Source: a candidate division FCPU426 bacterium
GTDB lineage: Bacteria; Oederibacteriota; Muellerivitia; Muellerivitales; Muellerivitaceae
Assembly (NCBI GenBank): GCA_030041545.1
Contig: JASHNQ010000062.1
Location: 38,156 to 102,155 of the forward strand
Direction of reading: 5' to 3'
Length of the DNA: 64,000 nucleotides
This document shows, piece after piece, positions 4,895-54,700 of this stretch (the stretch's first letter is position 1; each line of letters opens with the position of its first letter). The position numbers were made by a program, and so were the translations under genes. The notes beneath the pieces are model-generated. The model was not told the origin of the DNA and searched no databases. It worked only from the letters and a program-made list of their open reading frames with translations.

Positions 4895-5000
4895 ATTCGC
4901 TTCCTGTGCCGATTTTCTTTGAAATAATTAATTCATTGAAATCGGTTCCTATACCAACCTCTTAAGAAACAATCTCAATCAAAGAAGGTCGGCATGGGCT

Positions 5001-5060
5001 AAAAAATGAAAAAGCCCCCTGTAGCGGAACGCCAAAGGCGCCACCGCTTCAGGGGACTTT
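5001..5060 (-). terminator. intrinsic terminator-like hairpin in the argD upstream region
   Basis: Minus strand AAAGTCCCCTG-AAGCGG...CCGCT-ACAGGGGGCTTT followed by TTCATTTTTT. Confidence 0.7.
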
Positions 5061-5073
5061 GTTTGAGGAAGGC

Positions 5074-5102
5074 ATATTAGTGTCTAAAAGCGGCCCTGTC
5101 AA
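5074..5102 (-). promoter_or_regulatory. sigma70-type promoter upstream of the argD leader
   Basis: TTGACA (5102-5097), 17-nt spacer, TAATAT (5079-5074). Confidence 0.65.
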
Positions 5103-5203
5103 TCGGTCCTAAAACGGCCGAATAACACCATCGGTTGTCTATCCAAGGTGGGCCGGGAAAAGGTAAAAGGGCGGAAGGTTAAAAAGCCCGGCCTTTTTAC
5201 CCT

Positions 5204-5301
5204 TTAAACCCTGATCGATGGTTCCGTCAGCCCTTCAACTCACGCTAGTCGTTCAGGGTTTCCAGGGCCATTCATCAAACCCTTATCGATGGCTCTGTCA
5301 A
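5204..5301 (-). repeat. duplicated 27-nt 3' end of the dGTPase gene with an intervening 28-nt palindromic element
   Basis: 5275-5301 and 5204-5230 both encode LTEPSIRV*; CCCTTCAACTCACGCTAGTCGTTCAGGG lies at 5231-5258. Confidence 0.85.
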
Positions 5302-6420
5302 CTTCTCATACTCCTCGATGGCGAACCGGTCGGTCATACCGGCGATGTAATCGCAAATGATGCGCCTTAAGGGGTCGACTTTATTTTTGATTTTTTCACG
5401 GGTATTGATGGGCAGGATATCGGGGTTGGACTCATAAAGGTGGAAGAGCTCCTGGATCACCTTGGCCGCCTTTCCTTCCATGCGGGTAACATGGGGGTGC
5501 CGGTACATGTTCTGGAAGAGGTAACGCTTCATTTCCAGGAAGTCCTGGCGGAACCCGGACGAAAAAGCCGCCACTTCCTCCGGGCAACGCCGTACATCCC
5601 CGACGGTCTTAATGCCGAATTTCCCGATCCGCCGGCCCGTCTCTTCCAGCAGGTCGGTCACCTGCTCGTCGATCAAAAGCCGAACCGTCTGGTACTTGAC
5701 CTTGTCCTTGCCCAAGTTCGGGTGGCGCTCCTTTAATTTTTCAAAGTTTCGCTTCCAAAGGGGCACCATATCCAAACCGTCAAAAGCCAACAAACCCGAA
5801 GTGAGCCCGTCATCCACGTCGTGGGAGGTGTAGGCGATTTCATCGGCTAGGTCCACGATCTGGGCCTCAATGGTGTACTGGTCCCCATCCCCCCCGGGCC
5901 GGTCATAGCGCGTACGGTGCTTGTCCACACCCTCGAGGACCTCATAGGAAAGGTTGAGCCCCTTGAAATCTGGGTACCGGTCCTCCAGGTGGGTGACGAT
6001 GCGGTAGCTTTGGGCGTTGTGCTCGAAGCCACCGTCGTTTTTCATGATTTCGTTGAGTACCTTCTCGCCCGAGTGTCCGAAGGGGGTATGGCCCAAGTCA
6101 TGGGCCAGGGAGATGGCTTCAGTCAAGTCCTGGTTCAAGCCTAAGCTTCGGGCGATGGACCGGGCGATCTGGGCCACTTCCATGGTGTGGGTGATGCGGG
6201 TGCGGTAATAATCCCCCTCATGGTTGACGAAAACCTGGGTTTTATACTGGAGGCGGCGGAAAGCGGAGGCGTGGATGACCCGGTCGCGATCGCGCTGGAA
6301 GGACGTTCGGTAGGAATGTTCTGGTTCCGGGTAGTGGCGCCCACGGCTTTGGTTGGACCGCTGGCCATAGGAAACCAGAGTTTCATCTTCCAATTGTTCC
6401 AGTTGTTCCCGCGTTCTCAT
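5275..6420 (-). CDS. dgt: deoxyguanosinetriphosphate triphosphohydrolase (HD family)
   Basis: FQRDRDRVIH, RRLQYKTQV, RTRITHT, AHDLGHTPFGHSGE, DYIAGMTDRFA. Confidence 0.95.
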   Translation of the reverse strand: MRTREQLEQLEDETLVSYGQRSNQSRGRHYPEPEHSYRTSFQRDRDRVIHASAFRRLQYKTQVFVNHEGDYYRTRITHTMEVAQIARSIARSLGLNQDLTEAISLAHDLGHTPFGHSGEKVLNEIMKNDGGFEHNAQSYRIVTHLEDRYPDFKGLNLSYEVLEGVDKHRTRYDRPGGDGDQYTIEAQIVDLADEIAYTSHDVDDGLTSGLLAFDGLDMVPLWKRNFEKLKERHPNLGKDKVKYQTVRLLIDEQVTDLLEETGRRIGKFGIKTVGDVRRCPEEVAAFSSGFRQDFLEMKRYLFQNMYRHPHVTRMEGKAAKVIQELFHLYESNPDILPINTREKIKNKVDPLRRIICDYIAGMTDRFAIEEYEKLTEPSIRV

Positions 6421-12615: not shown

Positions 12616-12733
12616 AATTCCCCTCTGGCAATGGAATGACGGCTTAGGTTAATGAAGCGGTTCGACACAAAGAAGCTTTTTGAATTGGCGAATAGAACTT
12701 CAGCCCGATATTGATTAAAAAAATAACCGCAAA

Positions 12734-12836
12734 TGGCCTGCCATACGGAGCTGGCAAATTGATCGCACGCCCTCCTTCGCCAAGGCTGCGGAGGGCATAC
12801 TTCGCTTACTTCAATCGAATTCAAGGAAGCGAAGTA
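12734..12836 (-). repeat. CCA-flanked 103-bp unit downstream of tRNA-Lys
   Basis: TGG at 12734 and 12837; CATACTTCGC...GCGAAGTATG inverted repeat; CCCTCC..CCTTGGCGAAGGAGGG hairpin. Confidence 0.85.
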
Positions 12837-12912
<76 letters not shown>

Positions 12913-13020
12913 GTATAGGTCCATCGACTTCAAAAACACCGATCAAAAGCGGCGGCAATTTTCACTGCGCATCTCGCCCCGAGTTGGCCGAAGGCTATCG
13001 AGGGGCTGAGCTAATCACCC
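12913..13020 (-). repeat. exact 15-nt duplicate of the tRNA-Lys 5' end plus a hairpin element
   Basis: CTGAGCTAATCACCC at 12898-12912 and 13006-13020; hairpin CGCCCC...AGGGG at ~12975-13005. Confidence 0.8.
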
Positions 13021-13041
13021 ACAAATTTACAACTCGAAAAA

Positions 13042-13144
13042 TGGCTCGCCATACGAAGCTGTGTCATTCAACTCTCGCCCTCCTTCGCTGAAGCTATGGA
13101 GGGCATGCTTCGCTCACTTTAATATTTTTCAAGGAAGCGAAGTA
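13042..13144 (-). repeat. CCA-flanked 103-bp unit downstream of tRNA-Arg(CCG)
   Basis: TGG at 13042 and 13145; same two-hairpin layout as the other units. Confidence 0.85.
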
Positions 13145-13221
13145 TGGTACGCCTGAGAGGGCTCGAACCTCTGACCTACAGATCCGGAATCTGTCGCTCT
13201 ATCCAACTGAGCTACAGGCGC
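13145..13221 (-). tRNA. tRNA-Arg(CCG)
   Basis: Anticodon arm ACAGA-TT-CCG-GA-TCTGT, CCA. Confidence 0.97.
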
Positions 13222-13272
13222 ATCCCAATCCGCTCTTGCTACCACCCAGCCTCATTGACTTCTAGCGAAAGA

Positions 13273-13374
13273 TGGCCTGCCATGCGAAGCTGCCGAATTT
13301 GAATCCAGCCCCCCTTCGCCAAGGCTACGGAGGCATACTTCGCATTGTTTCACAACATCCGTTGAAGCGAAGCA
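13273..13374 (-). repeat. CCA-flanked 102-bp unit downstream of tRNA-His
   Basis: TGG at 13273 and 13375; CATACTTCGC...GCGAAGCATG; CCTTCGCCAAGGCTACGGAGG hairpin. Confidence 0.85.
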
Positions 13375-13452
13375 TGGGGTGAGAGACGGGAATCGAACCC
13401 GCAACCCCCAGATCCACAATCTGGTGCTCTAACCAATTGAGCTACTCCCACC
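13375..13452 (-). tRNA. tRNA-His(GTG)
   Basis: Anticodon arm CCAGA-TT-GTG-GA-TCTGG, G-1, CCA. Confidence 0.97.
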
Positions 13453-13695: not shown

Positions 13696-13905
13696 GCATC
13701 GAATGTTGCGCTTGCCCGGAGCCGAACCCTTCGACTTACTTCGCTCGCTCAGGACAAGCCGGGCCCTTCAAATAGCTTGGCAGGAGTATGCCTCGCTTTC
13801 CAATTCCAAGAAAGCGAGGGGCATCGAATGGTGCGCCTGCCCGGAGCCGGACCCTTCGACCCGCTTCGCTCGCTCAGGGCAGGCCGGGGACCCACTGCTT
13901 AGAAG
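13696..13905 (-). pseudogene. two tandem fragments of the tRNA-Arg(TCT) 3' half (att-like), each with a hairpin element in the T loop
   Basis: 13829-13905 matches the tRNA 3' half at 16598-16642 apart from a ~33-nt insert CCCTTCGACCCGCTTCGCTCGCTCAGGG; a more degenerate copy lies 125 nt earlier. Confidence 0.85.
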
Positions 13906-51738: not shown

Positions 51739-54700
51739 TTAGAATCTTGCTTCCGCCGAGACGGTTCCCATCCACAGCACGTAGTTCAACTGGTTGTTCA
51801 GCAGGTTGGTGAAATATTGGTTGGTCAGGCCCACGCCCACGAGCAGGTTCGTGAGGGCGTTGTACTGGCAGTTGATTGTAACACGGTAACTTTGGGTCTG
51901 GAGCTCGTTGTTGACGTAGCTGGACTGGTTGTTCACGAACTCCATGAGGTAGGTGGTCTTCAGGTCCACGTCGTTGCCCATCCGGATGACCCAGTGGGTG
52001 AGGGGGACGTGGAAATCCAAGTGGGGGTTGAACCGCTGGTCGTACTCGATGGAAAGCTGCTGGTCCGACTGGGTGACCAGGGTGTCGAGGGTGGAAAGGC
52101 CGTTCTGGTAGCCCGTGGTCTGCTGGAGGTGGATGTTGCCCTGGCCCGCGCCCTTGCCCAGGTCGTAAGGCAGGGTGATGCCGTAAAGGTCGCTTTCGGT
52201 CTCATTGGCGATGCTGGGCGGGATCGTGCTGTCGTATTGGGTGCTGTCCGTGTGGGTGTATTGGAACTGGGCCGAGTCCACGCTAAAACCCACGAAGGGC
52301 AGGGTGAGGATCTTGTGGTTGTAAACGGTCGTCAGTCCTATGGTTTTTCCGTTTTGGGGCACGGGGTTGGATCCCTGGGAAAGCAGGTTCAACTGGTTGG
52401 TCCAGGAGGCGTTGGGCCGGAAATCCCAGACGTCGAACAACTTGAAATCGCCGGTCACCTGGTCGGTCTCCGACTGGGTGGCCAAAAGGGCGTCGGCGAA
52501 ATCGGGGTCGATGCCCCATTGTTCGTCCAAGCTCAGCATCCCCTGGCGGTAGCCGGGGATGGTGGAATTGGCGGCGTAGGTGCGGCCGTAGGTAAAGGTG
52601 GGGTTGATCTTCTGAAGGAAGCCAAACCAGCTGCTGGGGGTGAAGTTGCCCGTGAAGGCGAGGTTGTTGGCGCTGTTGAACTGCAGGCCGGTGGAATAGG
52701 AAACCCAGTCGTAACTGTTGCTTCCGGTATAGGCCACGGAGGGGGTCAGGCCCGGGATGCCCCGGTACACCAGCCCCGCCTTGGGTTGTTCCTGCTCCTG
52801 GAAGGGCGTATAGGTCACCGAATAACTGGACACCGAAACCGGCACCCCGGCCGAGTTGGTGTTGCCCATCGCGTCCGTCAGGGTCCAGGTATAGCCCGGG
52901 GTGAAGACCAGGTTCTTCACGAGCTCCGTGGTGTTGGTCCAGCCGTAGGTCTGCGTGCGGGTGGTTCGGTTGTAATTGGCCAGCCCCTCGTAGTTGGGGG
53001 CTAGGAAATCCTCGGTGTTGTAGTTCATGGAATAACTTTCGGTGAACTGGTTGGCCCCGATGGGCAGGAAGAGGAGCTTCGCCGGCGCGTCGTAGGTGGA
53101 GGCCACCGTGTAGACCGCCTGGTTGTTTTGGTTGTTCCCCTGCACCCCGGGTTGGGAGAGGTATGACTGGTTGGGGTAGGTTGAGTTTTGGTCATTCACG
53201 CTCCCGGAAAGCTGGAAGGACGTCAGGCGGCCGAAGGAGGGCCCCAGGTCCTTGGTATAGCTGATGCTGCCGATGGCGTTGTCGCTGGAGGTGTTGGGCA
53301 GGGAGATGTAATAGGGATTGTCCAAAAGCGCGGACTCGGTGGTGAGGTCCTGGTGGGTGTAGGAGGCCTGCGTGACCAGGGGCTGGGAGAAAAGGGAGAC
53401 CCCGCTGGAGGTATAGTCCACCCCCAGCTGGGTGGAATGCTGGAAATGGGTGCTGGTCTGGTCCATTTGGGTGAATCCCGAGTCCACTTCCTGGTAGCGC
53501 AGGTTCAGGGTGGCGAAGGGTTTCTTGGCGTCGTCGCCGATGACGAAGGCCCCGTCGGCGCGGCGGGCCAAGCCGCTGCGCACGACGGAGTTGGCGGCGT
53601 GCAGGTTGATGATCCACATGTCGCCCTTGAAACCCGAGGGCGCGTTGGGGGAAACCACCCCGAAGCTGATGTTGGTGACGCGGTTGATGAAGGGCGTCCC
53701 CACCTGGAGCCGGTTGGTCGTCGAGGCCAACTGGAAGTCCACCGTACCCCAGGTATTGAGGCAGGAAACGGCGGCCTGGCTCAACTGCATGTTGAATTGG
53801 TAGTAATCCTGGGGGTCGTTCCCCACGCGCAGGAAAAGCACGTCCCCCGGCTGGTAGGCCCTCAGGTAAAGTTCAAACCGCAGGTCCTGGTAGTTGGTGA
53901 GGTCTATGCCCTGGCTGAAGAGCCGCGTGGCGTAATAAATAGGCGTGCCGTTGATGTCGCCGGAGGGTTGGAAGTCGGCCGAGGAAAGGTTATAGGTGAC
54001 CTCCAGGGCCATTTGTGAGTAAAGGAGGGCGGACTGGTCCTGGCCCGCCTGCACGGTCACGAAATTCATGGTGGGCACGAAACTGGAGTTCTCGGCCTGG
54101 CTGATGGAATCCACGTCGAATTTGGACGGGTTGACCGTCACGCCCTGGGACTGGTTGGCCGTGGGGTCCACCTGCAGTACCCAAAGGTTTTGGGTGAAGT
54201 CGATGCTTTGGAAATAAACGTCCCCGCTGATCGGCGAGGGGCTGGCGCCGGTCATCCAGACGCGGGCCGAGCGGATGATGGTGGGGCTGGGCGCGCCCAC
54301 GGTGTTGAAGAAATAGCTGATGCCGTCCGGGGTCGTTCCCGGGCCGGTGGAGGCGGACAAGTTGACGGGGATCTTCACCTCGTGCCACCCGGTCCAATTG
54401 GCATCGATGCCGTATTCGAAATAGGAATCCTGGTCGTTTATGATATTGGTCCCGTTCATGTTCTCGGTGACGTAGCTGGTGCCGCTTCCCACGCTGACCC
54501 CTTCCTGCGAGGTTTCTTCCCCCGGAAGCAGATAGGTGACCGATGCCGTGGAACTCCCGCCGGCCGACCAGGGATTGCCCTGATAATAGAAAGTCGGGAT
54601 GGCGTAAAGGGGGTCGGCCGGAAGCTGGGGCTGGGCGAACTCGTTGGGATCGGAAAAGAAAGTACTGCCCTGAGCGGCAGTAGGTTGGCCGTTGACGTCC

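Follow-up and report, generated by a model that had tools for sequence, protein, structure and literature searches.

The dgt gene of an uncultured FCPU426-phylum bacterium is followed, shortly after its stop codon, by a second copy of its own 3' end. This raises the question of how a gene end can come to stand twice at one place, in two spellings that encode the same peptide, while the gene itself remains whole. The locus lies within the window (the whole stretch of 64,000 nt of DNA that was analyzed) and belongs to the source genome, G000, a 3.8-Mb metagenome-assembled genome (MAG) of candidate division FCPU426 in 115 contigs; other G numbers denote the genomes with which it was compared. The features of the region, in window coordinates, are the following.

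5275-6420, minus strand: dgt, an intact open reading frame for a dGTPase of 381 aa, identified from its translation, from Pfam HD and HD_assoc matches on homologues and from orthologues across the family that are 63-94% identical.
5275-5301, minus strand: copy B, the expressed tail LTEPSIRV with stop codon TGA (TTGACAGAGCCATCGATAAGGGTTTGA); the expressed tail of G003 differs from it at 1/27 positions.
5259-5274, minus strand: the first 16 nt of the spacer, TGAATGGCCCTGGAAA in gene sense, with a motif (CTGGAAAC) that alignments show to be common to G003, G005 and, more loosely, G010.
5231-5258, minus strand: the 28-nt hairpin module, CCCTGAACGACTAGCGTGAGTTGAAGGG in gene sense, directly adjoining copy A.
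5204-5230, minus strand: copy A, the displaced, untranslated tail LTEPSIRV with stop codon TAA (CTGACGGAACCATCGATCAGGGTTTAA), in a frame that differs from that of dgt.
5103-5203, minus strand: extra sequence of about 100 nt between copy A and the argD promoter, missing from insert-free relatives in alignments and containing a weak A5/T5 hairpin at 5175-5204.
5011-5102, minus strand: the native, family-conserved downstream flank, comprising a promoter-like TTGACA-N17-TAATAT element (-35 at 5097-5102, -10 at 5074-5079) and, after it, a strong hairpin with a U run (5011-5060), as located by inverted-repeat search and alignments.

Read in gene sense, dgt ends with GAG AAG TTG ACA GAG CCA TCG ATA AGG GTT TGA (copy B, 5301-5275) and copy A reads CTG ACG GAA CCA TCG ATC AGG GTT TAA (5230-5204). 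The start-to-start offset of the two copies is 71 nt and the spacer between them measures 44 nt (5231-5274); a duplicated gene tail flanks an insert, with dgt left intact. The copies match at 22/27 positions, which would be expected by chance within 300 nt with a probability of about 7e-7, and both translate as LTEPSIRV*. All five differences between them (T/C, A/G, G/A, A/C and the G/A that distinguishes the stops TGA and TAA) are silent, an outcome whose probability for five random substitutions is 5e-4 to 3e-3, according to the transition bias assumed. A first-pass annotation of this DNA had reported that the dgt C-terminus is present twice with five synonymous differences, and this is borne out in full (22/27 matches, LTEPSIRV* twice, chance about 1e-3). 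The tail motif was not found elsewhere in the 3.8-Mb genome by whole-genome search, and the best chance match to the tail in the 400 nt downstream of 45 related dgt loci reaches 12-16/27. The duplication of the dgt tail is real and common to several species.

Copy A is not read as protein. Its frame comprises 12 open codons only and offers no start, its offset of 71 nt equals 3n+2, and tandem stops (TGATGA) close dgt; programmed readthrough or frameshifting into copy A is ruled out on these grounds. At the other duplicated loci described below, the tail offsets represent all three frames. In the relatives that share the structure, the second tail reads ITEPSTGI* in G003, and LMEPSG, after which it is lost, in G010. 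Between G000 and G003 the spacer is identical at 31/44 positions and copy A at 19/27 (both 70%), compared to 75.8% at the third codon positions of dgt. When the first 15 nt of copy A are polarized with G010 as outgroup, three changes fall to G003 and one, which is silent, to G000, and the inferred ancestral copy A differs from copy B at silent sites only. These comparisons indicate that copy A decays neutrally in relatives, as does the spacer. Since copy A is now untranslated and neutral, the silent-only pattern would date from the origin of the pair rather than reflect any present constraint, and it would be silent-only because each tail had served as the functional end of the gene in a lineage of its own; taken by itself, the dgt locus is a neutral scar. 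The earlier proposal that both copies have been under coding selection hence stands in so far as copies A and B diverged as working gene ends, which the silent-only pattern supports, but fails as a claim of present-day selection on the downstream copy, which has no usable ORF, lies in another frame and shows non-silent changes or truncation in G003 and G010. The changes are also unevenly distributed, with the stranded copy almost unchanged in G000 and carrying six or seven changes in G003, an asymmetry with a probability of about 3-4% under equal rates.

In most relatives the dgt stop is followed, after 16-57 nt, by a conserved TTGACA-N17-TAAGAT promoter, a strong hairpin and a class-III aminotransferase gene. 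An insertion directly after the dgt stop, with a homologous spacer and a second tail, was identified in G000, G003 and G010. G003 belongs to the same genus as G000 (dGTPase amino acid identity of 94%) and presents the second tail at the identical 71-nt offset (ATAACTGAACCTTCGACCGGGATTTGA, 17/27), whereas G010 represents another genus (86%) and has kept the spacer together with the first 15 nt of the second tail (CTGATGGAACCTTCG, 13/15). Comparison of dgt 3' ends in relatives, which had been put forward as a check on the duplication, thus recovers the same architecture in both. Since these are other species, from other assemblies, the structure must be natural and old, and not an artefact. The insert is missing from L264 (a Logan contig with a dgt product 92% identical in amino acids) and from G001, G002 and L265 (87-88%), and so patchy a distribution calls for transfer or for several losses; with a direct repeat on either side, the insert could easily be lost precisely. 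Copy A matches the tail of G002 at 22/27 positions and copy B at 19/27, both copies match the tail of L264 at 20/27, and no recombination breakpoint was seen within dgt in comparisons that included L264. A BLAST DNA search for homologues of the insert across the family returned none, the homology being visible only in anchored alignments, and a look-up by exact protein match turned up no independent assembly of this strain.

Several further observations concern the downstream side of the locus. G003 carries a 1.85-kb segment between the second dgt tail and the argD promoter (L194 8067-9821) with a gene for a multi-pass membrane protein of about 560-584 aa that has no Pfam match. G000 lacks this gene, and about 100 nt of homologous flanks remain. 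The promoter with its hairpin and U run (5011-5102, minus strand) is conserved across the family and lies upstream of an argD-like aminotransferase gene and an OTCase gene. In G000, L264 and L269 an extra leader of about 95 nt with two hairpins precedes the ATG (window 4895-5010, minus strand); the region may constitute an attenuator or a small RNA and has no Rfam match.

The 28-nt module that separates the first part of the spacer from copy A reads CCCTGA-A-CGAC-TAGCGTGA-GTTG-AAGGG in gene sense, and its palindromic character is confined to 4-nt CCCT/AGGG ends and a 4-bp inner CGAC/GTTG stem. It had been described as a palindrome related to the tRNA-Arg att insert; a count against that insert, which interrupts the tRNA-Arg 3' duplicates (~13850-13880), confirms the 19/28 identities, but the palindrome is weak. 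A copy on contig C95 matches the dgt module at 22/28 positions (hand count). A hidden Markov model of the corresponding repeat family was built from 13 clear members and run over the genome with nhmmer. The search identified 47 hits for this multi-copy CCCTGAG...TCGAAGGG family, which has conserved ends, with the dgt module among them. The score of the dgt module corresponds to E = 2 genome-wide, and to about 1e-5 by rough conversion for one pre-specified place, and the module is a weak, diverged member of the family; the version found in G003 (GGAGCGAACACCGTGAGTCAATGGG) is nearer the family consensus than that of G000. The suspected link to the tRNA-Arg insert is upheld in that both belong to the same family of small hairpin modules. 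The module also occurs at other duplicated gene ends, where the first-pass annotation had advised looking for it: it directly adjoins the second ilvD tail, in the same placement as at dgt, and it lies between the two tails of a gene for a 223-aa protein on contig C53. A whole-region repeat search yielded a single enriched word, CAGGGTTTCCAGGGCC, which was discarded as an ordinary coding word (ALETL-type) without flanking similarity.

The dgt arrangement is one of several in G000. The last 27 nt of every long open frame were compared with the 400-600 nt downstream, and 12-18 matches were obtained at 3' ends versus 2-6 in shifted controls; the same scan found no clean duplicated 5' ends. The clean cases, about ten besides dgt, are all conserved housekeeping genes, with duplicated tails located 44-157 nt downstream around hairpin-rich spacers. 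They are listed here by gene, contig position, length of the duplicated tail and offset.

secA, C75 ~53090-53300: tail of 69 nt, offset 142 nt.
guaA, C24 57920-58070: tail of 39 nt, offset 110 nt.
comM, C90 12720-12910: tail of 51 nt, offset 137 nt.
recR, C114 39380-39570: tail of 48 nt, offset 94 nt.
ftsA, C24 32090-32150: tail of 21 nt, offset 44 nt.
ilvD, C63 8520-8650: tail of 27 nt, offset 102 nt.
PTS-like membrane protein: tail of 33 nt, offset 105 nt.
nth, C73 19330-19700: tail of 27 nt as listed and 78 nt in a later look, offset 147 nt.
Gene for a 223-aa protein, C53 7040-7160: tail of 27 nt, offset 85 nt.
clpB-like gene (866 aa), C24 83400-83660: offset 157 nt.
dgt: tail of 27 nt, offset 71 nt.
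C1 5360-5500: also among the duplicated tail loci.

Across nine of these loci the codon changes between tails amount to 31 silent versus 4 non-silent, compared to the roughly 60% non-silent changes expected of one decaying copy. The guaA and comM pairs are otherwise identical, yet their stop codons differ, and the homology ends at the stop codon or a few bases beyond it; the spacers carry an inverted copy of part of the tail. Some loci offer evidence for the import of one of the two tails. At nth, stranded copies 2 and 3 (KVRDARKPLCNACALAKWCPSAF...) match the tail of the close relative G003, and the expressed tail contains a diverged 40-nt patch (GARKPSCGFCTLSQ) such that identity to G003 falls from about 0.85 to 0.62 over the last 90 nt. 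The second copy at the clpB-like gene encodes a different, intact-looking C-terminus with a one-codon length difference and its own stop. The guaA layout is present in G000, G001 and G004 and not in G003, G002 or G005; its first copy ends GAGTGA or GAGTAA, and its second copy ends GAATAA or GAATAG in G001 and G004 and GAGTAA in G000, which is close to the GAATAA at which single-copy relatives end. For nth and guaA these comparisons point to an expressed copy that would be element-derived and a downstream copy that would represent the resident tail. Three to five other genomes share the layouts seen at guaA and secA. A search of Rfam with the dgt region and five other loci gave no match. The duplication scan also returned false positives from a CRISPR-like array at C79 ~80300-82800, with repeat GTTCATCCCCGCACGTGCGGGGAAC and a 61-nt period.

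A second family of elements, with core GAGCCCACMAGGCGAGG, occupies the spacers at secA, nth and comM (C75:53193, C73:19421 and C90:12806). These elements measure 65-75 nt, consist of the core and a variable hairpin, and have no Rfam match. Allowing one mismatch, the core is found at 1-11 instances per genome in 31/31 family genomes, versus 0-3 for the reversed control. The elements are usually flanked by direct repeats of the target of 18-78 nt (loci L234-L263), and examples include non-coding sites with 20-22-nt repeats as well as tandem arrays at comM of G011 and nth of G000.

The secA locus presents a puzzle of its own. An element with a spare tail follows secA in G000, G002, G006, G007 and G008, with a junction whose position varies and a spare tail that measures 69 nt in G000 but about 21 nt in each of G002, G006 and G008. 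In every genome examined, the core of the spare tail, KCHGA*, differs from the expressed tail by silent changes only (8, 5, 4 and 4 changes; loci L220 of G002, L222 of G008, L225 of G006 and L219 of G000, which represent four genera). Between genera the spare tails likewise differ mostly at third positions, with non-silent changes at the left edge only, although stops lie directly upstream and there is no start. A silent-only pattern maintained across four genera is not accounted for by simple relic decay. Selection acting on the spare copy was considered through two routes and rejected by argument: deletion load would exert no selection among element-bearing genomes, and gene conversion is excluded by saturation of the silent sites in such cases as secA of G002.

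Taking these data together, copy A is probably a non-coding relic, left when two working alleles of the dgt tail were joined around a hairpin module. In such an event, an ancestor of both G000 and G003 would have taken up a short DNA piece by recombination at the 3' end of dgt, and G010 would share the result by descent or by transfer. The incoming piece would have comprised the tail of a different dgt allele and a small hairpin module of the repeat family; one of the two dgt tails, we infer, was imported. One tail would have stayed fused to the gene and expressed (copy B) and the other been stranded 44 nt downstream (copy A), after which the stranded tail and the spacer would have drifted neutrally. 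Three routes to the join may be envisaged. A miniature cassette carrying a spare tail may have integrated att-style or guided by its hairpins or by homology; an insertion with a long target duplication may have occurred and then spread between lineages by homologous recombination, in which case the two tails would be mosaics of donor and recipient alleles; or the join may have been a one-off, homology-facilitated illegitimate event. The multi-copy nature of the modules, their specificity for 3' ends and their insertion at non-coding sites favour a mobile module over a pure accident. Candidate trans-acting enzymes encoded in the genome include 9 tyrosine recombinases and 13 matches to the Y1-transposase model (PF01797). 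The first-pass annotation had proposed that an insertion or recombination supplied a replacement gene end, and this coincides with the explanation preferred here and draws support from the silent-only pattern; its more specific reading, an integrative element at an att site, does not fit a locus with 44 nt between the copies, no integrase and no conventional att pair.

Other explanations of the paired tails deserve consideration. The join may have been a scar of homology-facilitated illegitimate recombination without any mobile element, in which the 3' part of dgt gave way to DNA of a diverged relative, with one crossover in coding homology and the other end, in the hairpin of the donor 3' UTR, joined upstream of the resident tail; the spacer would then be donor 3' UTR. 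Such a scar accounts for the silent-only differences and for a homology boundary at the stop codon, and it is consistent with the recR locus, where the spacer that follows copy 1 can be aligned to what follows copy 2 and either tail is matched by a complementary stem of its own, and with the foreign-looking patch in the expressed nth tail. We nevertheless regard it as rather improbable, because the spacer modules belong to families with multiple copies at unrelated loci, some of them non-coding and flanked by repeats of 20-22 nt, which argues that they move on their own, because neither 5'-end counterparts nor a breakpoint within dgt came to light, and because some ten such accidents in one genome, all at 3' ends of conserved genes, are a lot to accept. 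It is unlikely, too, that the tail was duplicated in place, be it by a long target-site duplication when the hairpin module inserted, by replication slippage or by a direct-inverted-direct snap-back at a hairpin, and then decayed with a silent-only outcome by luck. That luck would have to extend from the 5/5 silent differences at dgt (chance about 1e-3) to the 31 silent versus 4 non-silent changes over nine loci, where about 60% non-silent are expected, and it would leave aside the differing stop codons of otherwise identical pairs and the second copies at nth and the clpB-like gene, which are distinct, intact-looking alleles; this holds in spite of the perfect or near-perfect flanking repeats at guaA and comM of G000 and at loci L234 and L263, the inverted tail pieces in spacers (at dgt, AAACCCTGAACGA faces TCGATAAGGGTTT) and the tandem arrays at nth and comM, all of which speak for duplication in place.

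The resemblance of copy A to the gene tail might instead arise because both pair with the same spacer segment, as parts of a functional RNA element, with the spacer and copy A acting as a terminator, as an attenuator or in hairpins formed alternatively with the coding end. In G000 a 19-nt imperfect stem does join the spacer to copy A, and the gene tail can pair with the same segment; the fold has z = -3.7 with a mononucleotide shuffle of 119 nt, but only -1.76 with a dinucleotide shuffle of 171 nt. The hairpin is not conserved (z = -0.8 in G003, -2.1 with a different fold in G010 and +0.2 in G005), no U run follows it, Rfam gives no match, the region is absent from the close relative L264 and from most of the family, and pairing leaves unexplained both the similarity of the first 12 nt of the copy and the codon-wise pattern of differences. 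A functional RNA is on these data very unlikely, and an intrinsic terminator or attenuator in particular was rejected given a hairpin found only in G000, the missing U run and the lack of an Rfam match. Finally, it is hardly credible that the assembly merged two strain alleles. The sequence does derive from a 115-contig MAG, and strain alleles typically look silent-only, but the 71-nt offset recurs in G003, whose spacer and copy have diverged, and the structure in G010 as well, both being other species with other assemblies; the layouts at guaA and secA are found again in three to five further genomes, and a de Bruijn assembler needs real molecules that span the junction of spacer and copy.

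Joining of two working tail alleles around a module, the reading we prefer, has parallels among known systems. Integrative elements that bring replacement 3' ends to their targets include phage 21 in E. coli icd and islands in tRNA genes, guaA and comM. Prophage e14 supplies the 3' end of icd and leaves a pseudo-icd copy behind, and the differences between its two tails fall mainly at silent or conservative sites (PMC6379469). The dgt locus would resemble this arrangement in that the gene is intact with one tail expressed and the second tail lies downstream as a pseudo-copy, although at dgt either tail may be the imported one. It differs from e14 and icd in its insert, which at 44 nt (23-120 nt at the other loci) is non-coding and encodes no integrase; there is no ORF in the 44-nt spacer, and the extra 1.85-kb gene segment of G003 lies after the second copy. 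Related modules are found at different target genes, which the action of a single site-specific integrase would not account for. CIMEs are att-flanked, integrase-less remnants of ICEs or IMEs that are kilobases long and derive from a recognisable ICE. Like them, the dgt insert has no recombination genes and is bounded by attL/attR-like direct repeats of a gene end; unlike them, the dgt-type loci have no parent element that could be found, and the extra gene in G003 lies outside the repeat pair. As short, hairpin-forming, multi-copy and protein-less modules that lie mostly just after genes, the inserts also recall REP/REPIN, MITE and RPE sequences. These, however, have no target duplication or a short one of fixed length, whereas the repeats that flank the present modules span 12-78 nt, end at the stop codon and show allele-like differences; REPs are not known to duplicate their flanks. 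Target-site duplication by a MITE or another transposon was rejected, given repeats of 12-78 nt, 31 silent versus 4 non-silent changes and differing stops, which show neither fixed length nor random decay. A diversity-generating retroelement was likewise rejected, since the differences at dgt (T/C, A/G, G/A, A/C and G/A) are not confined to template adenines.

A broader generalization can be offered as a tentative possibility, less likely to hold than the account of dgt itself: that there exists a class of protein-less miniature hairpin cassettes of 30-120 nt which enter the 3' ends of highly conserved genes and tRNAs, and of which the dgt relic would be a fossil. The target would survive because a spare tail travels along with the cassette or is regenerated, and the cassettes would spread between lineages and genera in at least two families, CCCTGAG...TCGAAGGG and GAGCCCACMAGGCGAGG. 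Cassettes that spread with their spare tails would explain why the spare KCHGA* of secA is silent-only in four genera. The layout of a miniature cassette recurs and is apparently undescribed, and no description of such a layout with tiny non-coding inserts was found in the literature searched. The spelling of dgt is significant in that it would represent two different working alleles of one gene end spliced around a tiny hairpin module, a signature that appears at about ten essential or conserved genes of this bacterium and also in its relatives. Should the modules prove mobile, they would constitute integrative DNA of very small size whose target gene is protected because its tail is duplicated or replaced, and they would be markers of recombination between diverged lineages. 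Gene callers can be misled by spare tails, which can also pass for assembly errors and may serve as natural markers for tracing the exchange of gene ends in metagenome-assembled genomes.

A few other repeats and gene families of the same genome were noted in the course of this work. Among the Y1-transposase matches (IS200/IS605/RAYT-type), 5/13 lie in open frames of about 320 aa. Beside tRNA genes of the window (12700-13450, minus strand), the CCA ends of tRNA-His, tRNA-Arg(CCG) and tRNA-Lys are followed by repeats some 100 nt in length, and at 12990-13030 (minus strand) the first 15 nt of tRNA-Lys are duplicated beside a CCCCTCGA...CTCGGGG hairpin. A larger, abundant repeat at about 20 loci (e.g. 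C29:9850-9930, C58:18390-18440 and C69:67140-67190) combines a tRNA-like 3' end, GGTTCGACTCCCTTCGGTCGCTCACC, with an adjacent CCCTGAGCGAGCAAAGCGAGTCGAAGGG module, and the 28-nt module looks to be derived from a mimic of the T-arm and acceptor.
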